Positions 2,152 to 20,902 of a DNA stretch of 26,506 nucleotides are shown in pieces. The stretch spans positions 1 to 26,506 of IMG/VR virus record IMGVR_UViG_3300010362_000091; one strand, 5' to 3'. This DNA is from a virus. Taxonomy: Duplodnaviria > Caudoviricetes. The translations under genes and the position numbers were made by a program. The notes under the pieces are model-generated. The model was not told where the DNA came from. It ran no database searches and was given only the letters and a program-made list of their open reading frames with translations. Positions within the stretch are counted from its first letter, which is position 1. The number at the start of each line of letters is the position of its first letter.

Positions 2152-2388
2152 GGGCGATTCCCTCGGCGGTGGTGGTCCGGGCCAGAATATATGCAAGGAT
2201 TGCGCATCGCCAATATTTGATTTTTGACGCGACGTCGTCCGGTCCTGCCGCGCGGGAAAAAGATCAATGTTCACAAATGCGCAATCTTTGCGGCATCGCG
2301 TTTCCGGGGGCAATCCGGGGGGCAATTTTTCCCCGGAATTCGTCCGGATTGATCTAAATTCGCCTGGATTTGCCCCCCGATGCGCGAC

Positions 2389-2415
2389 AAAAAAGGCGCC
2401 CCGCGAGGGGCGCCT
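2389..2415 (-). terminator. Rho-independent terminator downstream of the tRNA fragment
   Basis: Minus strand AGGCGCCCC-TCGC-GGGGCGCCT followed by a T run. Confidence 0.8.
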
Positions 2416-2442
2416 AGTCTAGCGATTTCAATTGGTTAGCGG

Positions 2443-2491
2443 TGGCTGGGGGAGAAGGATTCGAACCTTCATCGACGGAGTCAGAGGCCGT
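2443..2491 (-). other. 3' half of tRNA-Gln(CUG), the att core; not a complete tRNA
   Basis: Minus strand ACGGC-CTCTGAC-TCCGT CGAT GAAGG-TTCGAAT-CCTTC TCCCCCAG CCA gives the anticodon loop, T arm and CCA; no D arm or 5' acceptor strand upstream. Confidence 0.85.
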
Positions 2492-2506
2492 TGGAGCCAG
2501 CCGGGA

Positions 2507-3790
2507 TTATTCCGCAGATGCAATGGGTTGCGGCCCCGTGTCGTTGGCGGGGGCAATTTGGGGGGCAATTTTGTTCCGGGCTTGATCCCGGGCGGCGCGC
2601 GTGGCGACGTCCTGGACATTGCGGACGGTGTCGTCGCTCGGGTCGGCGTAGAATTTGGCGGTGGTGGCGATGTCGGCATGACCGAGCATCAGTTGCGCCG
2701 CCTTCAGGTTCCCGGTCGCGTCGACGACCCGCGATCCCGCGGTATGGCGGAGATCATGCAGGCGGGCGGGAACGCCGGCGCGCGACCAATGGGTCTGGCG
2801 GTGCGCGGTGAAGCGCCCGTAGGTCATCGGGTATCGGACGCCCCGCAGCAGGTCGACCGTCCGGCCGTTGCGGGGATGGACATATTTGACCCGGCGCCGC
2901 GCCCAGAAGGTAAAGACCGCGGTCGGGTGCCGGTCGGGCCGGTTCCATTCGGTCATGATGATGGCCCAGGCCTCGGCGCCGAGCGGGACCCGCTGCGGCG
3001 ATCCGCCCTTGGTGTCGGGGATTTTCATCATGCGGGCGTCAAAGTCGATCTGGAACCATGTGAGGGAGAGGAATTCCTGCGCCCGGCGGCCGGTGACGGT
3101 GCCGAATTTGCGGACGATCATAAAATCCTCGAAGCCATGCTTTAGCTCGTAGGCGTCGAGCCGTGCCTCGGCCTGCGGCGGGATCGCGAGATCGCGCGGG
3201 CGCGGTCGGTGCGTCTCCTTGAGCCAGTGCATCTTCCAGCCGATCTTCGCGACCTGCGCGGATCGACGTCCGCCGGCGTGGTTGAGAATGCGCCGGACGA
3301 GCCGCAGGGTCTTGTTGACGGTCGTCGTGGTGATCGGCCGCGCGCCCCGCTTCGGGTCGGTGCGGGTATGACTGCGGCGGGCGCTAATCAGGTCGGTGAT
3401 GTCGACGTCGCGAATCGCGGTCAGGAGCTTGGTCGCGCCGATCTGCGCGCGGACGAAGGCGACCTGCGGCCCGTCTTTCAGGACCGGCCGGCCCGCCGCG
3501 TCCGATGCCTTCTGGACGAGACCGTCCTCGTCCAGGTATTGAGCGACGTCGCGCAGCCAATGATCGCAGGCCTCGCCCCAGGTCATGGGTCCCAGGCCGA
3601 TCTGCCGCCCGCGCGCGTTCTCCTCCAGCGCCTTGCGCCGCTCCTCCTTGGCGATGGCCTCGGCCTCGCGTTTGTTCTTCGTCCCGGTTGTCCCCTTGCG
3701 CGGCTTGGTCTCGCCGGGGATCACGAAGCGCCAGGACCAGGGCCTGGTGACGTCGCCCCGGGTGATGTATTTCCCCGTCAGATCGCTCAT
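2507..3790 (-). CDS. int: Tyrosine recombinase (phage integrase), ~427 aa
   Basis: TGRRAQEFLSL (R), TKGG (K), HDLRHT, LGHADIATTAKFY; start MSDLTG with GGGAGA RBS; adjacent to the att core. Confidence 0.93.
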   Translation of the reverse strand: MSDLTGKYITRGDVTRPWSWRFVIPGETKPRKGTTGTKNKREAEAIAKEERRKALEENARGRQIGLGPMTWGEACDHWLRDVAQYLDEDGLVQKASDAAGRPVLKDGPQVAFVRAQIGATKLLTAIRDVDITDLISARRSHTRTDPKRGARPITTTTVNKTLRLVRRILNHAGGRRSAQVAKIGWKMHWLKETHRPRPRDLAIPPQAEARLDAYELKHGFEDFMIVRKFGTVTGRRAQEFLSLTWFQIDFDARMMKIPDTKGGSPQRVPLGAEAWAIIMTEWNRPDRHPTAVFTFWARRRVKYVHPRNGRTVDLLRGVRYPMTYGRFTAHRQTHWSRAGVPARLHDLRHTAGSRVVDATGNLKAAQLMLGHADIATTAKFYADPSDDTVRNVQDVATRAARDQARNKIAPQIAPANDTGPQPIASAE

Positions 3791-3828
3791 TGCCGATTTC
3801 TCCCGTGTTGGTAGTGGGCTCGCTATAT

Positions 3829-3843
3829 ATGCCAATATGGCAT
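3829..3843. promoter_or_regulatory. Operator-like palindrome ATGCCA-ATA-TGGCAT upstream of int
   Basis: Perfect inverted repeat; the same motif recurs in several other intergenic sites. Confidence 0.65.
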
Positions 3844-3887
3844 GGCGGTGCCAAGGCGAGCCTGCGGGACATCCCCGCTCATATTTT

Positions 3888-4160
3888 TCAGGGGCGCGCC
3901 CGTCCGCCGCCGCGCGGCAGCGGACGGTCCTGCCGCATGTGCGCCCACAGCGTCGCGACGTCGACGAGGGTGAAGACGAGGCGCGGCCGATTCCGACCGA
4001 GTCCCTTCGACCGGGCGACGACATGTCCGGCGCGCACATGCTCGCGCAGTTGATCCTGGTCCATCTCGAGGAGCCGCGCGACGCGCGGCAGCGACAGGAA
4101 CACGTGACCGCGAAAGGCTTCGCGGATCGCTTCCGGCAGCGCGCTCGCCTCCGCGGTCAT
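3888..4160 (-). CDS. Excisionase-like winged-HTH protein, paralog 1
   Basis: LSLPRVARLLEMDQDQLREHVRAG..GLGRNRPRLVFTLVDV; immediately upstream of int. Confidence 0.7.
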   Translation of the reverse strand: MTAEASALPEAIREAFRGHVFLSLPRVARLLEMDQDQLREHVRAGHVVARSKGLGRNRPRLVFTLVDVATLWAHMRQDRPLPRGGGRARP

Positions 4161-4169
4161 GCGCCCCCC

Positions 4170-4874
4170 CTATGCCCGGCGCCGGCGCGGGGCGTCGACC
4201 GCGTCGGCGTTTGCCTGCTCGCCGAGCCGGATGGCGAAGCGGCCCCACCCGAGCTTGCGCGAGGCGCCGACGCCGATTTCCCGGCCGGCAAATTCGACGA
4301 AGTCCACCATCTTGCGATAGGCGACGATGTCCTCGGAAAACGCGACGAAGCCCTGGCCGACGAACGGCCCGAGGAACTGGTTCGACCGCAGCGCGCGCTG
4401 ATTTGATAGCGTCTGGCCGGTCCCGGATTTCACCTGCACGAACCGCTCCCAGACGCCGTCGCCGACGGACTTCCCGGTCGATACGTTCGACACCTGAAGA
4501 ACGGTGCGGATTTGCTCCTTGCGGGCGATCCGGATCGCCGACGACGCGAGGTCGGCGGCCTGCGCTAGGCATCCGTAGAGCTGGTGCGCCGGGATCGTGA
4601 TCTCGTCGCCCGGCCGGCCGCGCATCATGTCGTCGTCGCCGACGTCGCCGAAGGTATAGAATTGGCGCTCGGCGCGGGCCTGGAGCTTTTCGTAGTCGTC
4701 CATCGACATGTCGTGCGCGGCGAGATAATCGCGCAGCGCCTTGACGCGCTTCTCCTCCGACCGCGCGCGGCGGGTCCCCGACTCCTTCTGGATGTTGATG
4801 AGCTTCTCTAGCTCGGGCCAATAGGGGTGGGCGATATAGCCCTTCGTGAAGGTCAATTCGACCGGATAAATCAT
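4170..4874 (-). CDS. Orphan RAMP-superfamily (Cas7/Csm3-like) protein, 234 aa
   Basis: ITIPAHQLYGCL resembles the RAMP IPGSSLKGAL motif; C-terminal Gly-rich loop AGREIGVGASRKLGWGRF; AAGGAG RBS. Confidence 0.75.
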   Translation of the reverse strand: MIYPVELTFTKGYIAHPYWPELEKLINIQKESGTRRARSEEKRVKALRDYLAAHDMSMDDYEKLQARAERQFYTFGDVGDDDMMRGRPGDEITIPAHQLYGCLAQAADLASSAIRIARKEQIRTVLQVSNVSTGKSVGDGVWERFVQVKSGTGQTLSNQRALRSNQFLGPFVGQGFVAFSEDIVAYRKMVDFVEFAGREIGVGASRKLGWGRFAIRLGEQANADAVDAPRRRRA

Positions 4875-4996
4875 AGCGGTGCTCCTTGGTTGACGTTGGC
4901 GCTGGCGATGGCGACGGCGGCGGCGTAGGCGACGGCGTTGGCGAAGGCGAGGGCGCTGGCGAAGGCGTTGGCGGGAGCGCCGGCGAGGTCGATCAT
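4871..4996 (-). CDS. 41-aa Ala-X mini-ORF spanning hexamer array 1 (MIDLAGAPANAFASALAFANAVAYAAAVAIASANVNQGAPL)
   Basis: ATGA overlaps with both neighbouring genes. Confidence 0.45.
   Translation of the reverse strand: MIDLAGAPANAFASALAFANAVAYAAAVAIASANVNQGAPL
4892..4993 (-). repeat. Hexamer array 1: 17 units of CGCC+NN (GGCG+NN on plus)
   Basis: Plus-strand NN series: tt ct at ac gc ta ac tt aa ag ct aa tt gg cc ag at. Confidence 0.95.
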
Positions 4997-5259
4997 GGCG
5001 CGGCCACCCGTCGGCGGGACCGGGGCGCGCCGTTGGAAATGCGGCGCCAGAACACCTCGACGTCGCCGAGGGTGAAGACGCGGCGCGGGCGCTGCGTGCC
5101 GATGCCCTTGTTGTGCCAGGGCAGCCGGCCGGAATCGAGATGGCCGCGCAGGGTATTGCGCGAGAATTCGAGCGCGACGGCTAGCTCGTCGAACGACAAA
5201 TAGGCGCGACCGCGGAAGGCGTCGCGGACCTTGTCGGGGAGGGTGGCGCGATTGCTCAT
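4993..5259 (-). CDS. Excisionase-like winged-HTH protein, paralog 2
   Basis: LPDKVRDAFRGRAYLS..KGIGTQRPRRVFTLGDV aligns with 3888..4160. Confidence 0.7.
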   Translation of the reverse strand: MSNRATLPDKVRDAFRGRAYLSFDELAVALEFSRNTLRGHLDSGRLPWHNKGIGTQRPRRVFTLGDVEVFWRRISNGAPRSRRRVAAP

Positions 5260-5720
5260 CGGCGCCCCCGGGACGATGGCGTCGTCGTTGGCGTCGGCGC
5301 AGGCGACGGCGTAGGCGCAGGCGTTGGCGGGGGCGCCGGCGAAGGCGTTGGCGTCGGCGTAGGCGACGGCGGTGGCGTAGGCGGCGGCGAAGACGTTGGC
5401 GCAGACGAGGGCGGTGGCGCGGGCGTGGGCGCAGGCGGTGGCGCGGGCGTGGGCGCAGGCGTGGGCGCAGGCTTAGGCGTTGGCGGGGGCGTCGGCGTAG
5501 GCGGGGGCGACGGCGACGGCATAGGGCAGGCGAACAGCGGGCCGGGCGGCTCGCGCTCGACGGCGGCGCGGTAGTCGGCGGCGATCTCCTCCATGGTTGC
5601 AATTTCGCGGCGCGCAAGCTCCTCGGTCATGCTCCCGGACGCGACGGCGCGGGGATAGACCTTGAGGCGCCAGCGGACCTCGCGCTCGGCGCAGCGGAGC
5701 TTGTCGACCGCGGTCGCCAT
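5256..5720 (-). CDS. Phage hypothetical protein with a Pro-X tail encoded by array 2
   Basis: Start MATAVDKLRCAEREV at 5720, just after the upstream stop; its own stop overlaps the next start. Confidence 0.7.
   Translation of the reverse strand: MATAVDKLRCAEREVRWRLKVYPRAVASGSMTEELARREIATMEEIAADYRAAVEREPPGPLFACPMPSPSPPPTPTPPPTPKPAPTPAPTPAPPPAPTPAPPPSSAPTSSPPPTPPPSPTPTPTPSPAPPPTPAPTPSPAPTPTTTPSSRGRR
5272..5523 (-). repeat. Hexamer array 2: 42 units
   Basis: Plus-strand NN: at tc tt tc ca ac ta ca tt gg cc aa tt tc ta ac gt ta gc aa tt ca ag gt cg tg ca gt cg tg ca tg ca ta tt gg tc ta gg ac ac ta. Confidence 0.95.
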
Positions 5721-5721
5721 G

Positions 5722-6936
5722 CTAGACGGCCTCCACCCGGGCGGCTCGGCGGATGTCCTGAATGCGCTTTTCGAGATCCTCGACCCGCGCGCGGAGCGCG
5801 TCGTTCTCGGCATTCAATCGGTCAATGACGGCCTCGCGTTCCTCGGCCTCGCGCATCAGCCGGGCGCGGTCGTTCACCGTCTCCTCAATGTCGGAAATGA
5901 CGACGTCGGCCTGCTGAACCAACTTGTCGATGTTGGCCTTCACATAGCCGAAGGTGTCGGTGGTGATCAGCGTCATGGGATCTAGCTCCGGCCCGGCATG
6001 GATCGCGGCGCCGGCCACGCGGACCCCCGTCGACCGGCTGACAAGAAGGAATCCCGCGCACGCGACGAGCGCCGACAGCGCGAGCGCAAATAGGATCGAC
6101 CGGACGCCCGGCGCGGGACGGGGCGGGAGCGGGATCGCGACCGGCAGCGGCGCCGCGGGGAACGCGTCCGTGAAGGCCGCGGCGACTCGGTGCGAGGGCG
6201 AGGGCGGAGGCGGCGTCGAGGGCGATAGCGTGGGCGTTGCCGCAGGCGTTGGCGATGGCATTGGCGGAGCCGAGGTCGACGGCGAAGGCGCGGGCGTTGG
6301 CGGTGGCGTTGTCGTCGGCGGTGGCGATGGCGTAGCCATTGGCGCAGGCGCTGGCGATGGCACGGGCGGAGGCGTTGTCGTCGGCGTTGTCGTTGCCGCT
6401 GGCGTTGGCGCGGGCGATGACGGCGGCGGTGGCGAAGGCGCCGGCGCTGGCGCAGGCGCAGGCGTCGGCGAGGGCGTTGCCGTCGGCGTCGGAGAAGGCG
6501 TCGGCGATAGCGAGGGCGCGGGCGATGACGTCGGCGCTGGCGGGGGCGACGGCGAAGACGATGGCGTTGGCGCGGGCGCGGGCGTTGGCGAGGGCGCAAC
6601 ACGGGACAGGATCGCGGCGCGGCGCGGGACGCGGCGATGCAAATTTGCATTGGCCCTGAGCGGGCCGGACCAGCAGCGGCGGCCGCGGACAAGACGATAC
6701 GACCAATAGCCGGCGCGGGCCGCCGCCGGCGGCAGCGTCGACCGGCATCCCGCCGGGCGGCGCGCGCTTGAGACGTCCGACAGTCCGCTGGCGGCGGTGG
6801 GTTGGTCGGACGTCCGCGCGGCCGCCGGCGGGGCGATCACCGCCGTGTGCGCGGCGACGATGATGGCGGCAAATGTGAAGGTGGGGCCGTGCCTACCGCG
6901 CGCATCACGGTCATTGGCCGTGCCCCTTCGCGGCAT
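5722..6936 (-). CDS. Putative membrane protein: signal/TM segment, Cys-Trp domain, Pro/Thr/Ser stalk (array 3), TM helix, coiled coil
   Basis: Part of ORF 5722..7107; [16 protein letters not shown]; [20 protein letters not shown]; [19 protein letters not shown]. Start uncertain (6936 or 7008); an internal ATG at 5976 with GGAG may give a separate 84-aa coiled-coil protein. Confidence 0.55.
6191..6598 (-). repeat. Hexamer array 3: 68 units
   Basis: Uninterrupted 6-nt period of GGCG+NN on plus, with occasional GTCG/GACG/GCCG/GGCA variants. Confidence 0.95.
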
Positions 6937-7004
6937 CTGAGCGCCCCCGCTATCGCCGCGCGGCAGCGCGTGGCGGGCAGCGCCGCGAAACTCAGACACG
7001 AAGA

Positions 7005-7415
7005 TCATTTGCGCCGCTCCTCGATCAGGGCGCGGACGTCGTCCGCGTCCGCCGGGTCGAGCAGGGGGAGCACCTGGTCGAGGATGACCGCGCGCGCGTC
7101 CTCCCAAAACGCCTCGAATTCGACCGCCGTCATGCCGGCGAGGCTATGCGGTATCGGGATCGGGTGCGTGCCCCGCGGCAGGACGGCGAGGTCGAAGTGC
7201 CCGGTGGCGACGGCGAGCCAGCCGCCGACGTTCTGCATTGCCATGCCGCGCGCCCGGCCGATCCGGGCGACGATCATGTGGACGTAGTCGCGGAACGCCG
7301 GCGCGGACTGGATGACGCGGACGCGCACGGTCTCGCCGATGGCTAGCTCGGCCATCTTGGCGCGGGCCGCGTCGTCGGCCGGCACCAGGGCGTTCCGGAC
7401 TACGGAGAAGTCCAT
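7005..7415 (-). CDS. DUF1367-like phage protein
   Basis: [17 protein letters not shown] and [21 protein letters not shown]; located downstream of bet. Confidence 0.6.
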
Positions 7416-7416
7416 G

Positions 7417-8529
7417 TCATCCCCCGGCGAGCGGATTGCCCGGCGCGACGTCGAGCTTGCGCTTCTTGACCGCGGCGACGAGGCGGACGTGGATCTTCGG
7501 GGCGTGCGCCTCCATCTGCGTCAGGATCAGGTGGTTGGCCTTCTCCCAGGCCTCGATCCCGGCGACCGATTGCAGCGGCTGGATGGCGTTCAGGAAGCGG
7601 GCGCCCCATGATCGCCACTCCTCCTGCTCGCCGAGCGGGATTTCCTGCGGCGCGATTTCGCCGGTCTCCGGGTCGACGTCGAGCCCGTCGTCCGGGCCGT
7701 TGGGCGGCGGCGGCTCGGGGCCATAGTCGGGCGTTGGCGCAGGCGTAGCCGTTGGCGGGGGCGCTGGCGGTGGCGATGGCGACGCCGCAGGCGGCGGCGC
7801 TGGCGTCGGCGAAGGCGACGACGTGGACGTTGGCGATGGCGATGGCGGTGACCAGTTGTCGGCCGGGCGGGGCGCCGCGTCGGGCGGGCCGGCCTCGCCG
7901 CCGGCCATCTCCTCGTCGGAATAGTCCGACTCCTCCGGGAAGGCGGCGCGGAGGCTCATCGCCTTGGCGACCTTGAGCAGCTGGCCGCGCGGCCGGCGCG
8001 CCCACATGTCGTTGGGCAGCTCGCCGCCGCCGACGCGGCCATAGGCCTCCGCCCAATAGACGGGCTCGACGAAGGAAACGCGCTGATTGCCGACGATCCG
8101 GTAAACGGTGACGGAGCACCACTCGGGAAACGTGAGCGGGATTTCGGCGTCGACCCATTGGCCGCGCACGCGCTTGCGGCCGCGGAAGGTCTGCGTTTTT
8201 TCCGGTCCCCATTGCGGCGGGTCCATGCCGGCCCAGGCGCCGGTGCGCGCCGCCGTCACCTGCACCTCGTTGATCGACGGCCACACCGTCTCGACCTCGC
8301 GGCCGAGCGCGCTGTTCCACATGCTGACGATATTGACGGCGTGCTTCATCGGATCGAGGCCGCGCTTGCGGCAATAGGCGAGCGCGAGCATGACGGCCTC
8401 GGCGCTCCGGGCGTTGGGGAAGATCGCCTCGACATAGACGCGCCAGTCGACGGGATCGCAGTCGGCATAGGCCGGCATGGGCAGGCGCGGCGGCGGCGGG
8501 ACGGCGGGGACGGGGGCGGGCACGTTCAT
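7417..8529 (-). CDS. bet: Bet/RecT-family single-strand annealing protein
   Basis: YCRKRGLDPMKHAVNIV, AARTGAWAG, MWARRPRGQLLKVAKAMSLRAAFPE; paired with a YqaJ exonuclease. Confidence 0.88.
   Translation of the reverse strand: MNVPAPVPAVPPPPRLPMPAYADCDPVDWRVYVEAIFPNARSAEAVMLALAYCRKRGLDPMKHAVNIVSMWNSALGREVETVWPSINEVQVTAARTGAWAGMDPPQWGPEKTQTFRGRKRVRGQWVDAEIPLTFPEWCSVTVYRIVGNQRVSFVEPVYWAEAYGRVGGGELPNDMWARRPRGQLLKVAKAMSLRAAFPEESDYSDEEMAGGEAGPPDAAPRPADNWSPPSPSPTSTSSPSPTPAPPPAASPSPPPAPPPTATPAPTPDYGPEPPPPNGPDDGLDVDPETGEIAPQEIPLGEQEEWRSWGARFLNAIQPLQSVAGIEAWEKANHLILTQMEAHAPKIHVRLVAAVKKRKLDVAPGNPLAGG
7730..7849 (-). repeat. Hexamer array 4: 20 units inside the bet linker
   Basis: Plus-strand NN: tt ca ta tt gg ct gt at ac ca gc ct tc aa ac tg tt at at gt. 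Confidence 0.9.
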
Positions 8530-9356
8530 GCGGCGGTCTCCTTGAGGCTCACGGCGCCGGCGCGATTGCGCCGCACCTGGACGCCGGCGAAGTGCAGCTT
8601 GCCGACGTCCTCGGGAAGCAGGGATTTGACGCCGGCGCGGGCGGCGTCGTTGCGCTCGGCCGCGGCGCGGGTCTCGCGCCATGCGCCGAGGTGCTCGCAC
8701 ATGGCGGCGGCCCAGTTGTGCCGGGCGCGCTCGTCGGCGTCGTCGAGGTTGACCGTCCGCCATTGCTCGGGCGGGACGATCCGCGCCATGGGGACGACCG
8801 CGACGGGCGGCGTCAGCGACTCGACGCACGACCAGAACTGATCGACGCGCTGCCAGACCAGCGCCTCATATTCGGGGTCGATGCGGACCTCGATCTCCTG
8901 CGGCGCGGCGCCGCCATGGACGACGAGGAGCGCGGCGCGGTCGGCGCCGGTGCAGCCGCGCTGGCCGATCAATTGGGGGATGTAGTGGACGACCCAGTCG
9001 TCCAGGCGGTTGTGGCCGTCGATCCATTTGCAGTCGAGGCAGGTCCGGTCGTCGGCGCGCCACGCGTCGAGGGTGCAGCAGAAGAACGGGCGCGCGGGAT
9101 GGACGACGACCTCGCCGCGCCGGGATAGCTCGTGGCGGGTGCGGCGCTCGTGCCAATCGAGGGCGAGCGGCTCGACATGCGCCCCGAGCACCATGGCCCA
9201 GTTATCCGCGGAATCGCGGGGCTTCCACGCCGGGTCGCCGATGCACTCCAGCCATTTGTCGTGGATCGCGGGGCCGTCGCCCTCCATCAGGTGCGGCAGG
9301 AACGACGCCGTGATTTTCTCGGCGCGGGCGGCGCGCTGCGCGGGCGACAGCGTCAT
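8526..9356 (-). CDS. YqaJ-like (lambda exonuclease family) recombination nuclease
   Basis: RAEKITAS, G.HVEP, CTLDAW, LDCK, YIPQLIGQ, FWSCVE; ATGA-coupled. Confidence 0.85.
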   Translation of the reverse strand: MTLSPAQRAARAEKITASFLPHLMEGDGPAIHDKWLECIGDPAWKPRDSADNWAMVLGAHVEPLALDWHERRTRHELSRRGEVVVHPARPFFCCTLDAWRADDRTCLDCKWIDGHNRLDDWVVHYIPQLIGQRGCTGADRAALLVVHGGAAPQEIEVRIDPEYEALVWQRVDQFWSCVESLTPPVAVVPMARIVPPEQWRTVNLDDADERARHNWAAAMCEHLGAWRETRAAAERNDAARAGVKSLLPEDVGKLHFAGVQVRRNRAGAVSLKETAA

Positions 9357-9751
9357 CGCTTGCCTCCCCCCGCCGCCGGGAGCGCGTATCGCCCCTTGCT
9401 CGGCGAGATGATCTTGCGCTGCTTCTTCAGCAGCGACATCGCTGTGCTCACGGATCTCGGATTGCGCCCGAGGCGGCCGAATTCGGCCTGGACCTGCTCC
9501 GTCGTCGCCGCGCCGCCGGCCGCCTTCAGGAAGTCGAAGGCAATCTGGTCGCCGGTGCGCGGGTCGCCGGGACGGTCGGCGTCGGCATGCGACCGCGGCC
9601 GATGCTGGTGTCGGCGCCGCGGACCGTTGGCGGCGCCGTCGTCGCATTGGCGGACGCCGATTAGCTCGGCCTCGCCGTCGAGGGTTTGCAGGATCACCGG
9701 CAGGCGCTTGGCGCTAGCGCGGATCGTCACGTCGAACAGCTTCGTCGTCAT
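9353..9751 (-). CDS. Hypothetical protein with a C-terminal wHTH-like segment
   Basis: ATTEQVQAEF..SVSTAMSLLKKQRKIISPSKGRYAL; similar to 22270..22728. Confidence 0.6.
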   Translation of the reverse strand: MTTKLFDVTIRASAKRLPVILQTLDGEAELIGVRQCDDGAANGPRRRHQHRPRSHADADRPGDPRTGDQIAFDFLKAAGGAATTEQVQAEFGRLGRNPRSVSTAMSLLKKQRKIISPSKGRYALPAAGGGKR

Positions 9752-10247
9752 GGTTGGCGGCTCCTGGCGCTGGTAGGAGCGGCTTCATTTCACCGCTCTT
9801 GTAAATTGCGGCGATGCGCGGCTTGACGTGCTGCGCGACGGTCCGCCCGTCGGGCATGACGACATGCGGCATGAACTCGGTCTCGAAATCGGTGATGCCG
9901 GCCTCGATGGCCTCAAGCTTGGCGAGCAGCACGAGGCGGAGCGCGCGCCATGACGACCGGCACGCCTGCTCCCAGGCGGCGAGCGCGGCCTCGGGCGACC
10001 GGCGCGCGCGGACGCGCGATTGATTGACCCGCGACAGGGTGAACCGCTCGTCGTCGCGACGCGGCAGCGGAAGCTCGAACATGATCCGCCGGGCCTGCGC
10101 CTCGAACAAAATCATTGCGCGGTCGGACGTGTTGTAGAAGGCGGTCGACGTCGCGCCATAGCGGACGAGCAATCGCTCAATTTCCCCGCGGGTCCGCTCA
10201 ACGGGGACGTCGGATTCGGCGGCAAAGCGCAGGCGAGTCGCGACCAT
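9714..10247 (-). CDS. Phage hypothetical protein
   Basis: SDVPVERTRGEIERLLVRYGA..WRALRLVLLAKLEAIEAGITDFETEFMPHVVMPDGRTV; GGAG RBS. Confidence 0.8.
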   Translation of the reverse strand: MVATRLRFAAESDVPVERTRGEIERLLVRYGATSTAFYNTSDRAMILFEAQARRIMFELPLPRRDDERFTLSRVNQSRVRARRSPEAALAAWEQACRSSWRALRLVLLAKLEAIEAGITDFETEFMPHVVMPDGRTVAQHVKPRIAAIYKSGEMKPLLPAPGAANHDDEAVRRDDPR

Positions 10248-10323
10248 GGGCGCGCTCCCGGGGGCGGCGGCGGCGGATTGGGGATCGGGGTCGCGCGGGG
10301 GCGGCGGCCCCAATTACCTTTTA

Positions 10324-10366
10324 ACGGTACGGCGCCCCCCCTAAGTCGTCAACACCTAAGGGTGTT
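10324..10366 (-). promoter_or_regulatory. pL-like sigma70 promoter with adjacent palindrome
   Basis: Minus strand TTGACG-N17-TACCGT (10352-10324); AACACC-TAAG-GGTGTT at 10351-10366. Confidence 0.6.
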
Positions 10367-10577
10367 ACCGGAACATCGCATACAGCAAAGAGCGAACGCG
10401 GCGATTGTTCGCGGGCCGGGCGAGCGGCTACATGATCCGGGGGGCTATGTCGTCCGGCCGACGCAATGGGTGGGGGCGTGGCAGATCGCCGCAGCCGCGG
10501 CGGTCCCGGATAGGGGATTCCGGGGTTTCCCTGAGGATCGGTGTCGCTATACCGCGGGGGCTGTGGATAACTCGGGG

Positions 10578-11207
10578 CTATCGCGAGTACTTGCCGATGA
10601 CCCGTTGGCACCGCGGCCATCGCGCCTTGTCGTATGAGACCGGCTTGGTGCCCCGGTTCCATTGGCGCAATTGCCACGCCCGGTCGGAATTGCCGACGAG
10701 CCGGCCGAGGGCGGCGGCGGCGCCGTCGCCGATCAGGAGAACGTCCTTGCCAAGTTCCGGGGGCATATGGGGATGGATCAGCGCCGTATCGCCGACCTCA
10801 AAGGCCGGCTCATGCGCGGTCGTCGACACCAGCACGCCGTAGGCATCCTTCACGGACTTCAGCGGCGCGGGCCGCAGGGTGTAGCTAATTGGTTCCGCCG
10901 TCAGCATCATGTCCCACCCAACGCGCTCGCTGCCATGCACCGGCAGGTCCCGTTCGTCGGCAAATAGGGGAATAGCCGACGGCGGGGACGCCGGCGGCAG
11001 GGCAGGGCTGCTTCCTCCCGGTAATGACTGTTCGGTGACAATACCAAGGTGGGTCGCTATCCGCGACATGTATCGTGAAAACTTGATCTGCCCGCGCTCG
11101 ATCTTGTCGATGGTCTGCATATGCGACCCGACGGCGCGGGCGAGGGCCTGCTGGCTCATCCCCAACTCCTTGCGCCGTCTTTTGATTTTTTCACCTAGCT
11201 CGCTCAT
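10578..11207 (-). CDS. cI: CI-like repressor (XRE HTH plus degenerate S24 domain)
   Basis: LGEKIKRRRKELGMSQQALARAVG..IERG; AYGVLVSTTAHEPAFEVGDTALIHP; divergent from a cro-like gene. Confidence 0.85.
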   Translation of the reverse strand: MSELGEKIKRRRKELGMSQQALARAVGSHMQTIDKIERGQIKFSRYMSRIATHLGIVTEQSLPGGSSPALPPASPPSAIPLFADERDLPVHGSERVGWDMMLTAEPISYTLRPAPLKSVKDAYGVLVSTTAHEPAFEVGDTALIHPHMPPELGKDVLLIGDGAAAALGRLVGNSDRAWQLRQWNRGTKPVSYDKARWPRCQRVIGKYSR

Positions 11208-11354
11208 CTGCATCCGGGCCCCCGCCGTCGGCTAATACCCAAACATATCACCTGCGCTACCTACGCGCGCCTAATATTGCGCTATATAGCCTTATATGAC
11301 CTTATAAAAAAAGAGGGTTGCGGGCGGCCCGGTCCGGGGGGCTAGCGTTACCGG

Positions 11355-11612
11355 ATGAGCCGGAAGTCGATGGAGCGGGCGATTGCGATCTTCGGGTCCG
11401 AGGCCAAGCTCGGGGAGGCCATCGGCTATACGCAGCACGCCGTCTGGCGCGCCAAGAGATCCGGTCGACCGTCGGCGGAGATGGCGGTCGCCATCGACCT
11501 AGCTACCAACGGGATCGTCTCGCGCTATGCCCTGCGCCCCGACGTCTTCGTGACCGACGTCGACGCGCAGCGCAAGAAGCACGCAGCAACCCTCCCGCGT
11601 TTTGTCGCCTAA
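11355..11612 (+). CDS. cro: Cro/YdaS-like regulator
   Basis: AIAIFGSEAKLGEAIGYTQHAV..AIDLATNGIVSRYALRPDVF. Confidence 0.8.
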   Translation: MSRKSMERAIAIFGSEAKLGEAIGYTQHAVWRAKRSGRPSAEMAVAIDLATNGIVSRYALRPDVFVTDVDAQRKKHAATLPRFVA

Positions 11613-13645: not shown

Positions 13646-15058
13646 ATGGCCGACGACGACGACGAGAACGTCATCCCGATCAAGCCGGCGCCGGCCTATG
13701 CGCTCCCCGATTTCGTGCCGACGGGCGAGACCATGTGCGTCGAATTCGAGCGCCGCTATGGCGAGCGGCTTCGCCATGTCGCCCCGTGGGGGAAGTGGTT
13801 CATTTGGGACCAGGGCGTATGGGCCGAGGACGAGACGCTGCGCGTCGTCGACCTCGCCGGGCTTTTAGCGCGCGACATCGGCGGGATTGCGAAGAAGCGG
13901 CGCGAGCGCATGGCGATTGAGGCCTCGCGGACGGTGTCGTCGCTGGAGCGGCGGGCGCGGTCGGCGCCGGCGCTCGCGGCCCGCGTCGAGGCGTGGGACG
14001 TCGATCCGCTGCTGCTCAACGGGCCGCGCGGGACGGTCGATCTGGCGACCGGGCACATGCGCGGGCACCGGCGCGAGGACTATTGCACGCGGGCGACGGC
14101 GGTCTCGCCGACGCCGGCGCCGCCGCTGCGGTGGCTGACGTTTCTCCAGCGCGTGACCGGCGGCAATGCGGATCTGATCGGCTTCCTGCAGCGGGTCTGC
14201 GGCTATTGCCTGACCGGCCGGACCGACGAGCAGTGTTTGTTCTTCGTCTGGGGCCCCGGCGGCAATGGCAAGGGGACCTTCGTTCACACCATCACCAACA
14301 TCCTCGGGGGCTATGCCCGGGCGGCAGCCATCGAGACGTTCGTTGAGACGCGCTACGAGCGCCACCCGGAGGAATTGGCGACGCTGCGCGGCGCCCGGCT
14401 GGTGACCGCCTCGGAGACGGAGGAGGGGCGGGCATGGAATGAATCGCGGATCAAGGCGCTCACCGGCGGCGACGTCGTCCGCGCCCGCTTCATGCGGATG
14501 GACAGCTTCGAGTACGTGCCGCAGTTCAAGCTGCTCATTATCGGCAATAAAAAGCCGGCGTTCAAATCCATCGACCGGGCCGTCCGCCGGCGCCTGCACC
14601 TGATCCCGTTCACCGTCGAAATCTCCGACGAGGAGCGCGACAAGCTGCTCGACGAGCACCTGCGCGGCGAATGGCCGGCCATCCTTAGCTGGATGGTCCA
14701 GGGCTGCCTGGAATGGCGGGCGCGCGGGCTGGCGCCGCCGGCGGTCGTCGCCGCGTCGACGGCGGAATACCTGGAGGCGGAGGACGCCGTCGGGACGTGG
14801 CTCGAGGAATGCTGCGACCGGCTGCGCGACAGCTTCACCGCGTCGGCGGCGCTGTTCGCCGGCTGGAAGGCGTGGGCCGAGGCGCGCGGTGAGCGGGTCG
14901 GGACGATCCGGACCTTCGTCCAGAATTTGCAGGGGCGCGGCTTCGTGCTCGGCCGCACCGACCGGGCGCGCGGCTTCCGCGACCTGATCCTGACCCCGGA
15001 GAAGAAGCGGCCGGCCGACGACGGCGACGGCGACCCCGAGCTATGGCGGAACCGATGA
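13646..15058 (+). CDS. P4/D5-family SF3 helicase (primase C-terminal type)
   Basis: GPGGNGKGT Walker A, LRGARLVTASE, IKALTGGD, RRRLHLIPF. Confidence 0.92.
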   Translation: MADDDDENVIPIKPAPAYALPDFVPTGETMCVEFERRYGERLRHVAPWGKWFIWDQGVWAEDETLRVVDLAGLLARDIGGIAKKRRERMAIEASRTVSSLERRARSAPALAARVEAWDVDPLLLNGPRGTVDLATGHMRGHRREDYCTRATAVSPTPAPPLRWLTFLQRVTGGNADLIGFLQRVCGYCLTGRTDEQCLFFVWGPGGNGKGTFVHTITNILGGYARAAAIETFVETRYERHPEELATLRGARLVTASETEEGRAWNESRIKALTGGDVVRARFMRMDSFEYVPQFKLLIIGNKKPAFKSIDRAVRRRLHLIPFTVEISDEERDKLLDEHLRGEWPAILSWMVQGCLEWRARGLAPPAVVAASTAEYLEAEDAVGTWLEECCDRLRDSFTASAALFAGWKAWAEARGERVGTIRTFVQNLQGRGFVLGRTDRARGFRDLILTPEKKRPADDGDGDPELWRNR

Positions 15059-16140
15059 CCGTGCGGGCGGCAACGCTGTTCAGCGGGATCGGCGCCGCGG
15101 AGGCGGCGATGCCGGGCTGGTGCTGGCTGTGGTGCGCGGAGGTCGAGCGGTTCCCCGCCGCGGTCATGGCGGCGCGGCATCCGGCGGTCCCGAACCTTGG
15201 AGATGTTACGGCCGATGATTTCGTCAAGCGCGCCGCCGCCGTCGGGCGGCCAGATGTCGTTGTTTTCGGTTCCCCCTGCCAGGACTTCAGCGTCGCCGGG
15301 GGACGTCGCGGCCTGGCTGGCGCGCGCGGCAACCTCACGCTCGTCGCCCTGGGAGTTGTTGCACGACTTGAGCCCCGTTGGTTCGTCGTCGAGAACGTTC
15401 CCGGTCTCCTGTCGTCCGCCGACGGGCGCGACTTCGGGCTTTTCCTGCGAGCGGTGGATGACGTCGGGTATTCTGGCGCGTGGGCATGCCTGGACGCGCA
15501 GTGGTTCGGCGTGGCGCAGCGGCGCGCGCGTCTGTTCTTTGTCGGACACGCTGGAGACTGGCGCGGTCCCGCGGCGGTACTTTTTGAGCCCGAAGGCCTG
15601 TGCGGGGATTCTCCGCCGCGCCGCGGCGCGGGATCGGAACCTGCCGCAGGCGTTGCGAGCCGCACTGGCGGCGGCGGCTGGCCCGACGGCGGCGACGGCC
15701 GGCACAGCCACCTGATCCCGGCCGCGTTCGGCGGCAACGACACGCGCGGGCCGATTGACGTCGCGACCGCCTGCAACGGGCACGGCGGGCCGCATGGGCG
15801 GCTGGACTTCGAGAGCGAGACTTTCGCGGTGTGCCTCGCCAGCGACCCGATCCACGCGCGCGAGGTCGGCATGCCGCAGACGGCGCGTAACGGCGATCCC
15901 GGCGTGGTGGCGACGGCCGCCCGGGTGCGCCGTCTGACGCCGCGCGAATGCGAGCGGTTGCAGGGCTTCCCCGACGACTACACGCAGGTCTGCGACCGCG
16001 GGCGCCCGGCGGCGGACGGACCGCGCTACCGCGCAATTGGCAACGCCATGGCGGTCCCGGTGATGCGGTGGATCCTGGGGCGCGTCGAGGCGGTCGAGGC
16101 GATCATGGGGGGCGACCCCGAGTTATGGAGGAACCGATGA
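15055..16140 (+). CDS. dcm: DNA (cytosine-5) methyltransferase
   Basis: LFSGIG, GSPCQDFS, ENV, QRRARLF, RRLTPRECERLQGFP, IGNAMAVPV. Confidence 0.93.
   Translation: MTVRAATLFSGIGAAEAAMPGWCWLWCAEVERFPAAVMAARHPAVPNLGDVTADDFVKRAAAVGRPDVVVFGSPCQDFSVAGGRRGLAGARGNLTLVALGVVARLEPRWFVVENVPGLLSSADGRDFGLFLRAVDDVGYSGAWACLDAQWFGVAQRRARLFFVGHAGDWRGPAAVLFEPEGLCGDSPPRRGAGSEPAAGVASRTGGGGWPDGGDGRHSHLIPAAFGGNDTRGPIDVATACNGHGGPHGRLDFESETFAVCLASDPIHAREVGMPQTARNGDPGVVATAARVRRLTPRECERLQGFPDDYTQVCDRGRPAADGPRYRAIGNAMAVPVMRWILGRVEAVEAIMGGDPELWRNR
15197..15715 (+). CDS. Alternative-frame ORF nested in the methyltransferase (start uncertain)
   Basis: SLSDTLETGAVPRRYFLSPKACAGILRRAAARDRNLP looks protein-like and resembles C5-MTase-associated segments. 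Confidence 0.5.
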   Translation: MEMLRPMISSSAPPPSGGQMSLFSVPPARTSASPGDVAAWLARAATSRSSPWELLHDLSPVGSSSRTFPVSCRPPTGATSGFSCERWMTSGILARGHAWTRSGSAWRSGARVCSLSDTLETGAVPRRYFLSPKACAGILRRAAARDRNLPQALRAALAAAAGPTAATAGTAT

Positions 16141-16403
16141 CGGCGCCGCTGCGGCCATTCCTGCACAACGCCCAGATCGCCCGCGAGGCGCGGCGGATCG
16201 CGCACGCGGCGACGCGGCGCTGCGTCTATGGCCGCGCCGACAGCGACCCCGACTACCACACGCCGGGATGCAACCGGTTGACGGCGGAAATCCTGGCGCT
16301 GGCCATGCGGGTGAAGCTGGCGGCGGCCCAGCGCCCGGGACGGCGGCGGACGCCGGCCGAGGGTGTGTTCGTGTGCGCGGACGCGGGCGGGCCGCCGCGG
16401 TGA
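16137..16403 (+). CDS. Hypothetical protein
   Basis: ATGA/GTGA coupling at both ends; GGAGG RBS. Confidence 0.6.
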   Translation: MTAPLRPFLHNAQIAREARRIAHAATRRCVYGRADSDPDYHTPGCNRLTAEILALAMRVKLAAAQRPGRRRTPAEGVFVCADAGGPPR

Positions 16404-17011
16404 TTTACTTGAGCGGCGCCGTGCGCCCGAACCTGAGGCATCCGATGTTGGGCTACATGCACACGCCGCAGATGTGGAACGAGGTTCTGGCGGATGTGAC
16501 GTGGGCGGCCGACAGCGGGTGCTTCCGCGCGCCGGCGCGCTATTCGGACGAGGGCTACCTCGCCTGGCTGGCGGCACGGCCGCGGGACCGCTGTCTGTTC
16601 GCGACGGCGCCCGACGTCGTCGGCGATCATCGCGCGACCGTCGACCTATCCCGGCCGATGCTGCCGCGGCTTCGCGCGGCCGGATACCGTCCGGCGTTCG
16701 TCGCCCAGGACGGATGGACGGAGGGGGGGACACCGTGGGGCGAATTTGATGTGCTGTTTATCGGCGGCAGCACCGGCTTCAAGCTCGGCGCCGGCGGCAA
16801 GGCCATTGCCGCGGGGCGGGCGCGCGGCAAATGGATTCACATGGGTCGCGTCAATTCATTTGGGCGGCTGCGCGTTGCCGCGGCGCTCGGCTGCGATAGC
16901 GCCGACGGGACGTTCCTCAAATTCGCGCCGGACGTGAACGAGCCGCGTCTGATCCGATGGCTGGATAAATTGGCGGCGGTTCGCTTCCTGCCGCTTGGAG
17001 GACACACATGA
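16400..17011 (+). CDS. DpdA-like (TGT-fold) DNA deazaguanine transglycosylase
   Basis: WAADSGCF, APDVVGD, VAQDG, LFIGG, HMGRVNS, DSADGT; directly upstream of queE and queD. Confidence 0.7.
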   Translation: MIYLSGAVRPNLRHPMLGYMHTPQMWNEVLADVTWAADSGCFRAPARYSDEGYLAWLAARPRDRCLFATAPDVVGDHRATVDLSRPMLPRLRAAGYRPAFVAQDGWTEGGTPWGEFDVLFIGGSTGFKLGAGGKAIAAGRARGKWIHMGRVNSFGRLRVAAALGCDSADGTFLKFAPDVNEPRLIRWLDKLAAVRFLPLGGHT

Positions 17012-17628
17012 GTTACGCCGTCAAAGAAATCTTCGTAACAGTGCAGGGCGAGGGCGCCCATGCGGGGCGCGCGGCGGTGTTCTGCCGCTTCGCCGGGTGC
17101 AACCTGTGGAGCGGGCGCGAGGAGGATCGCGCGACGTCGACATGCCCGTTCTGCGACACCGACTTTGTTGGCGGCGAGAAATTTGCGAGCGCCGGGGAGC
17201 TCGCGGCGGCGATCCGGGCGGCATGGGGCGACGGGCGGCCGTGTCGGTTCGTGGTGTTCACCGGCGGCGAGCCATTGCTGCAATTGGACGACGCGCTGAT
17301 TGCGGCGGTGCATGCCCACGGCTTTGCGGTCGCGGTGGAGACGAACGGGACGCGCCCGGCGCCGGGCAAAATTCAATGGCTGTGCGTGAGCCCGAAGGCG
17401 GGGGCGCCGCTGGTGCAGGCCGAGGCCGACGAATTCAAGGTCGTGTTCCCGCAGGACGGGCTCGACCCGGAGGAGTTGCGCGGGCGGGTGTCGGCGACGC
17501 GGTTCTCCATTCAGCCCATGGACGGCCCCGAGGCGGTGGCGAATACGGCGGCGGCGGTCGCCTATGTCGTCGCGCACCCATGGTGGCGGCTGTCGCTTCA
17601 AACCCACAAATTTGCGGGCATTCCATGA
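17008..17628 (+). CDS. queE: 7-carboxy-7-deazaguanine synthase (radical SAM, Cx14CxxC type)
   Basis: EIFVTVQGEG, CNLWSGREEDRATSTCPFCDTDF, TGGEPLLQ, ETNGT, VSPK, WRLSLQTHK. Confidence 0.95.
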   Translation: MSYAVKEIFVTVQGEGAHAGRAAVFCRFAGCNLWSGREEDRATSTCPFCDTDFVGGEKFASAGELAAAIRAAWGDGRPCRFVVFTGGEPLLQLDDALIAAVHAHGFAVAVETNGTRPAPGKIQWLCVSPKAGAPLVQAEADEFKVVFPQDGLDPEELRGRVSATRFSIQPMDGPEAVANTAAAVAYVVAHPWWRLSLQTHKFAGIP

Positions 17629-17972
17629 CGACGCTGGTGGGCGCGCGGGCGACGTTTTGCGCGGGGCATTGGCTGCCGCAGCACGGGGAGACGCACGGGC
17701 ACTCCTACGAGGTGTGGGGATATGCGCGGGAGGGACGTTGCGCCGAGGTGCTACAGCGCGATTTGGCGGCGGCATGCGCGCTGCTCGACCACCGGATGTT
17801 GAACGACGTAATGGGGGACGAGCCGACCATGGAAAACATAGCGCGGTACGTGGCAGCGCGGGTGGGCGGCTTGGCCAAGGTCGTGGTTGCGCGGCCGGTC
17901 GAGGGTCTCGCGTGTGAGTATCACGCCGGCCCCCCGACCGCCGGCGTCGAGGCGGACCGGCCGCCGCCATGA
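17625..17972 (+). CDS. queD: 6-carboxy-5,6,7,8-tetrahydropterin synthase
   Basis: FCAGH.L, HGHSYEV, LDHRMLND, PTMENIA. Confidence 0.85.
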   Translation: MTTLVGARATFCAGHWLPQHGETHGHSYEVWGYAREGRCAEVLQRDLAAACALLDHRMLNDVMGDEPTMENIARYVAARVGGLAKVVVARPVEGLACEYHAGPPTAGVEADRPPP

Positions 17973-19398: not shown

Positions 19399-19620
19399 GC
19401 CCTTCGCCTACGCCACCGGCCCCGACCACGCCATCGCCCTCGCCGACGACGGAGCCAAGCCAACGCCAGCGGACGTCACGCCCCCCGGACCAAAACCCGG
19501 GGGGCGACCGCGTCCGCAATCCGTGGCACCATGACCGGGACCGCGCCGACGCCTCGCCCTCGCCGCCGCCCTCGCTGTCGCCCCGCCTTCGCCTCCGCCA
19601 TCGCAACGCCAACGCCCCCC
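19399..19620 (+). repeat. Hexamer array 5: two degenerate CGCC+NN blocks (~19399-19470 and ~19544-19618), non-coding
   Basis: tt CGCC ta CGCC ac CGGC cc CGAC ca CGCC at CGCC ct CGCC ga...; 1-nt indels break the period; both blocks are preceded by GACCGGGACCG. Confidence 0.75.
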
Positions 19621-19780: not shown

Positions 19781-20123
19781 CTTCTGACGCTTCTGACGCT
19801 TCTGACCCATCCGCCGGGACTAATGTGCTACATGAGATGCTGCGCCGCAGCACGGCATTCCCGCCGCAATCGTTAATCCTCCGCACGAGCTTCCCTAAGC
19901 TAAGTGCGGTGATCGGTCATAATGTCGCCACCATGGCGTCAATGCGTCAGCCAAAGCGTCATCCCATAAGCTATTGAACCGCTTCTATTAATGACGCTTC
20001 TGACGCTTCTGACACTTAAATGCTAAGATCCTACAACGGAGACACTTTAGGTCATGTTGCAGTGCAGGATGGCGTGGTGTTGTACATATAGGCGGTGACG
20101 TCAGAAGCGTCATTAAGCGTCAG
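19781..20123. repeat. CTTCTGACG iterons in direct and inverted orientation; candidate replication origin
   Basis: Three tandem copies from 19781; 18-bp inverted repeat TTAATGACGCTTCTGACG at 19988-20005 and 20099-20116 around an AT-richer core. Confidence 0.6.
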
Positions 20124-20902
20124 GACCCGCGCCTTCGCCGCCCGGCCGCCGTCCGCGGGCGACCTAAAAAGCACACTGTCAAATTGGCATGGCGGGGGGC
20201 GGGCGGGGCGGGGTAGCTTTAACTACCTCCGAAGCCTCCCGGCACCTCCCGACAGTCGACGGCAGCCGGCGACACCTCCCCGGCTCGCTTCAACCTCCTG
20301 CCGGGTGCTTCGACCGCCTTCGAAGCTCCGCGGGAGGCCCCGGCCGATCCCCCCGTCCGATCCGGTCGGCGGCGATTATCAACGGACCTTGAGTCCGCGG
20401 TCGTCGCGTCGCATTCGCATTGCTAATCAATTAGTTGCGGTACGCCAACCCGGCGGCGGGGGCAATAGGGGGGCAATTCTTGGCGCCCTCTCCGGTGCCT
20501 TCGCGGTGCTCTAACCTCCTTCCGTGCTCGGCCTCCCTGCCGGCGACCGTCGACGACGACCCGAACGACGTCGTCCGGGCAGCTCGCCTCAACCTCCTCC
20601 CCGAGACTCCTCCAGCCCGGCCGACCGGCCGCCCCCCTCCTCCCCTGGCTTCCCTCCCTGGTGCCCTCGCTTCAACCGAGCGAACGCATTTTTCGATTGT
20701 CCGGAAATTTTTGACGGCGCGGGCGCAGCGACTCACAGGAGTGAGGCAGGCACCCCCCCGGCGTCCAATCCGCCTCTTTCCGAGCGCCATAATGGCATAG
20801 GGGCCACATAGGCGCCGCGATTAGGGCGGGGGATAGGGGGCGGCGGGCGGCGGGTTGTCCCGGGCGATCTGGCGCTCGTCGGGTGATACCCCCCTAGCCG
20901 CG

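Follow-up and report, generated by a model that had tools for sequence, protein, structure and literature searches.

This locus raises the question of what a single RAMP gene does in the early operon of a phage, and whether the six-base repeat arrays beside it belong to its function. The window, by which is meant the whole 26,506-nucleotide stretch of DNA analysed, from a caudoviral soil phage, was originally predicted to encode a standalone RAMP protein next to int/xis genes, with an anti-CRISPR decoy subunit or an RNA-binding regulator as alternatives to a guided effector. The gene lies in a leftward operon in the order repressor, yqaJ, recT, small genes, xis-like gene, RAMP, second xis-like gene, integrase and tRNA 3' fragment, the principal features of which are as follows.

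2446-2516, minus strand: tRNA 3' fragment, likely attP (Rfam score under the gathering cut-off)
2507-3790, minus strand: tyrosine integrase (PF00589, phrog_1)
3888..4160, minus strand: xis-like HTH gene downstream of RAMP (weak Pfam wHTH match, E 0.013)
4170..4874, minus strand: RAMP gene, Vipr-like; 234-aa ORF with RRM core, three-helix bundle insert, thumb hairpin and G-loop (from predicted model and profile comparison)
4993..5259, minus strand: the other xis-like HTH gene, separating array A2 from A1 (HTH_17, E 9e-5), a paralogue of the 3888..4160 gene
7417..9356, minus strand: recT and yqaJ/recE recombination genes, in the same leftward operon as RAMP

The integrase together with the tRNA 3' fragment (2446..3790) indicates that the phage is temperate, and the int/xis neighbours are as originally described. 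The integrase search yielded one relative only and the tRNA fragment search weak plasmid matches only. Xis-like HTH genes were found beside RAMP in five close loci only; the gene at 3888..4160, being confined to close relatives, is thus not a family-wide partner. No neighbour gene is family-wide within 3.5 kb of RAMP, many of the contigs being short, and no sigma-70 promoter-like site was found in 2300-11400. Direct repeats (GGGGGCAAT) at 2299-2345 and 2542-2588 flank the tRNA fragment and are likely integrase arm sites; a similar pair occurs near 20460 (20455-20480), distant from the integrase. Elsewhere in the window, 15055-17972 (plus strand) carries a DNA cytosine methyltransferase, an unnamed gene, a QueE-like radical SAM gene and a possible QueD-like gene, forming a DNA-modification cluster, while triple 9-base repeats of the TTCTGACGC type occur twice with an inverted copy nearby (19781-19806, 19992-20017 and 20095-20120) and resemble replication-origin iterons or operator sites.

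Both RAMP motifs of the original prediction are present in the protein, IPAHQLYGCL at residues 94-103 and GVGASRKLGWGRF at residues 201-213, and G201, G203, R206, G211 and R212 are invariant in an alignment of 120 homologues. The AlphaFold model (pLDDT 94.4) predicts a long beta-hairpin (strands 140-149 and 155-168) where a thumb-like region between the motifs had been proposed, and helices at 20-68 for the proposed charged insert near the N-terminus. In a Foldseek search against the PDB, CRISPR complexes, and not non-RAMP structures, fill all top 50 ranks (best hit type VII Cas7, E 5e-7), and the best VIA-align match was a Csm chain (Z 12.3, 148 residues aligned, rmsd 3.2); identity to solved Cas subunits is 7-21%. 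The fold search also matched three viral proteins at E < 1e-7, one annotated as a RAMP. The protein has no significant match to Pfam, PHROG or PADLOC, a PDB sequence search names nothing either, and PF03787 is matched weakly by 3 of the 120 homologues; the RAMP call is based on the fold because sequence profiles do not call the protein. On its predicted model, which combines an RRM-type core, a thumb hairpin and a C-terminal G-rich loop, the protein is a member of the RAMP superfamily.

Homologues number 322 by single-sequence search and at least 526 by profile search (at 90% clustering), none of them functionally named among the matches listed, with 191 representatives at 50% clustering (E<=0.001). 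A tblastn search of 50,697 GenBank phages gave no match. A second, independent set of contigs, which may derive from the same sample, spans 3800-5556 without any difference. One Planctomycetia genome (G020:C21:83427-85761) carries a RAMP of this family in two parts about 1.7 kb apart, probably split by an insertion.

The fold is shared with the backbone subunits of class 1 CRISPR systems (Csm3, Cmr4, type VII Cas7), each of which spans six RNA bases. Unlike those systems, the locus has neither a repeat-spacer array nor Cas5, Cas6, Cas8, Cas10 or Cas1, and whereas class 1 CRISPR pairs five of six bases, here four of six are fixed. PADLOC Cas models matched none of the 99 ORFs of the window, itself a 26.5 kb fragment; no CRISPR-type repeat family was found in it, and Cas1, the only Cas protein sought there, is absent from five near-complete relative phages. 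No full cas operon elsewhere on the element was thus found to account for the gene. As a viral locus it is minimal, having no CRISPR array and no further cas genes, and it lacks the repeat-spacer array and cas operon by which class 1 CRISPR-Cas is recognised.

What the locus has instead are hexamer arrays, four of them (A1-A4) upstream of RAMP and on its strand.

4889..4990, minus strand: array A1, 17 GCC-NN-C units, the last one immediately ahead of the ribosome-binding site of RAMP
5275..5520, minus strand: array A2, 41 units, in frame after a small gene that lies upstream, with a Pro-rich reading
6194..6595, minus strand: array A3, 67 units in a single unbroken 6-base phase
7733..7852, minus strand: array A4, 20 units, within the recT coding sequence
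19401..19618, plus strand: two short degenerate arrays of the GCC-NN-C unit, oriented with rightward genes and far from RAMP

The longest perfect GCC-NN-C run is 17 units, compared with at most 4 in 100 triplet shuffles. Across the 145 units of the window the G is kept in 144, the third-position C in 142 and the last C in 141, and at either N position all four bases occur, with an NN composition that is nearly independent and rich in A (A = 36% of NN). By inspection of the printed flanks, no obvious structured or shared 3' tail adjoins the arrays. The pair at 19401-19618 (plus strand) may represent orphan guides.

All four arrays are open in a Pro frame. A1 doubles as a 41-codon ORF in the Ala frame, its start and stop overlapping the adjoining genes, and A4 reads as a Pro/Ser/Thr/Ala linker joining the RecT domain to a conserved C-terminal part. 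The arrays might accordingly be mere protein-coding low-complexity linkers (Pro-Thr-Pro-Ser or Ala-X) unrelated to RAMP, a proposal favoured by the open Pro frame and by the location of A4 inside recT. Codon use contradicts both frames: A or T occupies the Pro wobble position in 86 of 145 array codons against 10 of 155 in the genes of the window, and Ala GCG is used in 0 of 145 against 183 of 340. Array sequence is therefore not codon-driven. Since the frame used also varies between arrays, the GGC, GTC and GAC units of relatives encode other residues, and the arrays of the relative L077 are short and intergenic, the linker proposal is largely refuted and barely credible.

Across the family, a period-6 array lies within 1.5 kb of RAMP in 90 of 105 rows, which include the window, the identical record L025 and about ten duplicates, while arrays of period 4, 5, 7 or 8 were found in 0 of 105. 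After deduplication, in which 14 rows (self, duplicates and two partial genes) and proteins below 150 aa were dropped, 75 of 89 loci carry, within 2 kb, a period-6 array of 8 or more units; among the 14 that lack one are short contigs and L022, which had been meant for exclusion. Many of the arrays end directly before the RAMP start. The family unit is G-X-C-N-N-Y, with G at 98-100% and NN free, or more generally Y-G-X-Y-N-N, with C as the usual X and G, A or T in certain sub-groups. On a quick protein tree with midpoint root, one split (SH-aLRT 92) separates all 16 purine-X loci (GGC, GAC) from all 59 pyrimidine-X loci (GCC, GTC); as this is a single split among kin, it reflects shared history and is not proof of co-evolution. 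The AA dinucleotide is enriched in the two 3'-most units of family arrays (24% versus 14% mid-array), and of all NN in arrays of the GCC type GG is the least frequent (1.7%). Very long GGC-NN-C arrays of 75-91 units occur at L009:5502-5951 and L020:3700-5166, where they would be annotated as Gly-X repeat proteins; some Gly-rich repeat ORFs of phages may be arrays of this kind.

The view of the gene as a solo RAMP thus stands insofar as no cas operon explains it, but not in its claim to be standalone regardless of the arrays, which travel with the gene and whose fixed letters follow the protein tree. The same two observations make a guided effector much better supported than the proposed decoy, a Cas7 mimic that would poison class 1 complexes or soak up crRNA, with the arrays incidental. 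A Cas7-like fold in the early region of a temperate phage, beside small HTH genes, would suit such a decoy; its identity to solved Cas subunits is only 7-21%, set against clear homology to Vipr (below), and it leaves the period-6 linkage and the match between motif and tree unexplained. We regard it as very improbable.

The free positions turn over. RAMP genes differing at 11-21 of 657 nt carry A1 arrays of 17, 23 and 31 units with 2-3 of 17 NN in common, and NN blocks of 8-36 units are common to different arrays and phages, those of A3 recurring in arrays of the relatives L028, L029, L031 and L032. Such blocks are preserved across phages with 68-79% RAMP identity, and adjoining units are about as alike as shuffled ones (300 versus 291 of 3164). 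With A1 swapped wholesale and blocks common between arrays, the pattern agrees with exchange by recombination among the arrays, for which the neighbouring RecET may be responsible. Adenine-specific, DGR-like diversification was considered and rejected: A was involved in 12 of 13 NN differences of aligned blocks, the blocks being non-independent and A making up 36% of NN. No reverse transcriptase (PF00078) was found in 10 relative records.

These data bear on the second alternative, a regulator of its own operon, in which RAMP would coat hexamer tracts on early mRNA to control translation or stability and the NN would be unread, hence free. Such a role agrees with the placement of the arrays on the strand of the mRNA, often with an end directly ahead of the RAMP start (A1 abuts its ribosome-binding site) and within open frames, that of recT included, as it does with the near-independent, A-rich NN composition and with the failure to find a target for this phage (below). 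Repeats homogenised by slippage should resemble their neighbours, which these do not, and NN blocks have been kept between phages whose RAMPs are 68-79% identical. Moreover, the closest characterised homologues of RAMP are DNA-guided, and a guide of L077 spells a conserved motif in codon phase. The regulator stays a minor rival and is, on balance, unlikely.

The closest counterpart of the locus is VIPR, a group of RNA-guided DNA silencers with a five-base unit (Vipr plus vrRNA) that was described in 2026. Profile searching, suggested originally as a check, named nothing in Pfam, PHROG or PADLOC and did succeed against Vipr: HHalign of the RAMP family with 102 aligned homologues of the Vipr of Escherichia phage SUSP1 (type II VIPR) gave a probability of 96.7 (E 3.6e-10, 157 columns). 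The SUSP1 gene was chosen by its length and by G-loop residues matching the published Vipr, and homology was judged against the SUSP1-like family and not the published list of 670 Vipr proteins. By this comparison the RAMP family is homologous to SUSP1 Vipr, while remaining distinct from VIPR in sequence (191 representatives, E<=0.001). Both are phage-borne single small RAMPs with G-loop, thumb and helix bundle (predicted here), without CRISPR array or other cas genes, and flanked by tandem repeats of fixed letters and free NN. Secondary elements follow the same order in the two models, with a three-helix bundle here and a two-helix bundle in Vipr. In Vipr, guanines are read by D177 and W178, and R179 sits in the Y3 pocket, according to the available text of 10.64898/2026.04.26.720927. 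In the profile alignment R179 corresponds to the invariant R206, and D177 and W178 to A204 and S205, a replacement that fits the changed fixed letters.

The unit itself is where the two part. All VIPR repeats are pentamers, with no six-base form, in the available text of 10.64898/2026.04.26.720920 including its PMC supplement PDF, and none appears in that of 10.64898/2026.04.26.720927. The array caller of 2026.10.15.759431 scanned periods 4-8, and the portion available describes no hexamer. As far as its text was accessible, 10.64898/2026.10.21.760802 reports non-canonical 5-mer arrays (GAC/NN, CAC/NN and others) beside Vipr-like folds, the other periods that it names being 7, 8 and 10. Altered fixed letters beside a Vipr-like fold are thus a feature shared with the present family, but the non-canonical VIPR arrays in the same accessible text are all 5-mers, from a survey that covered intergenic DNA and so could miss arrays staying open in frame. 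No paper on a six-base form was found in the literature text available, outside which data tables, figures and bioRxiv supplements could list family members. Here the unit has six bases and not five, with CGCC as fixed letters, so that it is not GGY/NN or a related 5-mer; the YGGC/NN of one sub-clade equals VIPR's GGY/NN plus one pyrimidine. Further differences are the changed G-reading residues of the G-loop, the extra bundle helix and the apparent lack of a conserved vap accessory gene (none family-wide within 3.5 kb, on contigs of which many are short). This last, like the want of an obvious structured 3' tail, counts against a VIPR-like reading, and so do arrays of up to 67 units compared with 9-16 in VIPR, and several arrays inside reading frames, all four of the window lying in open frames.

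Taken together, we consider it probable that RAMP and its arrays form a hexamer variant of VIPR that silences rival DNA. This reading draws on the fold match, the homology to Vipr and the family-wide period-6 linkage on the gene's strand, and equally on the four fixed and two free positions, NN turnover, the covariation of motif and tree and the absence of any other cas gene. RAMP would likely form a polymer on RNA made from the neighbouring (GCC-NN-C)n arrays, each six-base repeat taking up one subunit and the arrays presumably being transcribed within the leftward early operon, and the free NN pairs would likely recognise and silence DNA of rival elements. By analogy with VIPR structures, the fixed Y-G-X-Y bases would be flipped out, one more than in GGY; thumb and helix bundle would pass over one base of the target for every unit, leaving codon wobble positions unread, and binding would repress without cutting. 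The mode of action is most likely VIPR-like, yet with units that are not pentamers the locus does not belong to a described VIPR type.

Targets were sought for the arrays of the window. In local searches with skips of 0-4 bases, the guides matched no more often than their shuffled counterparts, either in 0.65 Mb of flanks or in 1.36 Mb that took in complete relative phages. Five exact seeds, four with a 1-base and one with a 2-base skip (skips of 0, 3 and 4 being searched locally only), returned 24, 20, 22, 9 and 4 matches in viral contigs, as many as chance would give and none extending into flanking units. This absence counts against the VIPR-like reading.

A lead came from L077, an actinobacterial relative with a RAMP 42% identical and three short, separated arrays. 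With a 1-base skip, the third of these (11 units) matched 52 of 301 actinobacterial genomes, from the order of genome G023, at up to 3 mismatches, compared with 3 for the reversed pattern. A single small-gene family accounts for 34 of the 52 matches, two at 21/22 and seven at 20/22; the skipped base is always codon position 3, and the single mismatch of the 21/22 matches falls on the family's variable residue. Translation of six matches places them at the C terminus of a small unnamed protein, whose gene is, in three larger loci, divergent from a long unnamed gene. A codon-aware estimate expects about 0.005 sites by chance at 21/22, 0.19 at >=20/22 and about 4 at >=19/22. The other 18 matches lie in other genes (one at 20/22; 14 in enolase and three more at 19/22), in agreement with chance. 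The candidate target family (L254:9942-10223, L255:9458-9808, L257:9838-10068 and L268) is a small actinobacterial protein with a conserved C-terminal ELIxFWAD, for which no Pfam or Atlas match was found.

Several points count against this match. The candidate target looks chromosomal and not phage-borne, and one gene family amounts to one event; a search of viral contigs for a degenerate form of the motif found none. From g1 and g2, the remaining guides of the L077/G023 cassette, and from an L021 guide came a single match each, no better than chance, and G023's own copy of the candidate gene matches at 16-17 of 22 only. In G023 the third guide (L263:674-760) differs from that of L077 at two NN and contains a single unit of five bases amid those of six; among 120 genomes of G023's taxonomic family no further member of the RAMP family was found. 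Given about ten long-range target attempts, the match is a lead at roughly p 0.02-0.05, and, coming from a relative, is not proof for this phage; it offers a first candidate for a natural guide-target pair.

The L077 match also bears on whether the effector follows a different rule, such as a skip of another length, pairing of three bases in each unit, or RNA targeting in the manner of type III Cas7. A unit one base longer and a bundle with an extra helix would accommodate such a rule, the 1-base skip derives from one guide, and the nearest solved folds are RNA-targeting Csm, Cmr and type VII subunits; with no Vipr chain among the PDB matches listed, that type III ranking says little. The L077 guide with a 2-base skip matched none of 151 genomes, compared with 17 with a 1-base skip, the sole significant match being of the latter kind; the viral matches of the window's own 2-base-skip seed likewise came to nothing. 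A different rule appears quite unlikely.

The hexamer VIPR variant can be extended into a bolder proposal, put forward tentatively as possible rather than probable. The family would use a second VIPR code, in which one RAMP subunit per six RNA bases reads three DNA bases. Guides would lie within the phage's own reading frames (A4 as both RecT linker and guide) and be reshuffled by the neighbouring RecET, and the family would link VIPR, with its 5-base step, to class 1 CRISPR, with its 6-base step, YGGC/NN arrays being the intermediates. A hexamer variant of VIPR would show that guides can be dual-coded in protein genes, which intergenic surveys overlook, and would provide a small programmable DNA binder built on another scaffold. 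The RAMPs of CRISPR have been proposed to descend from VIPR, which steps five bases per subunit compared with the six of Cas7; a six-base step in a Vipr-related family as widespread as this one (at least 526 proteins at 90% clustering) would make the transition testable in one small protein.
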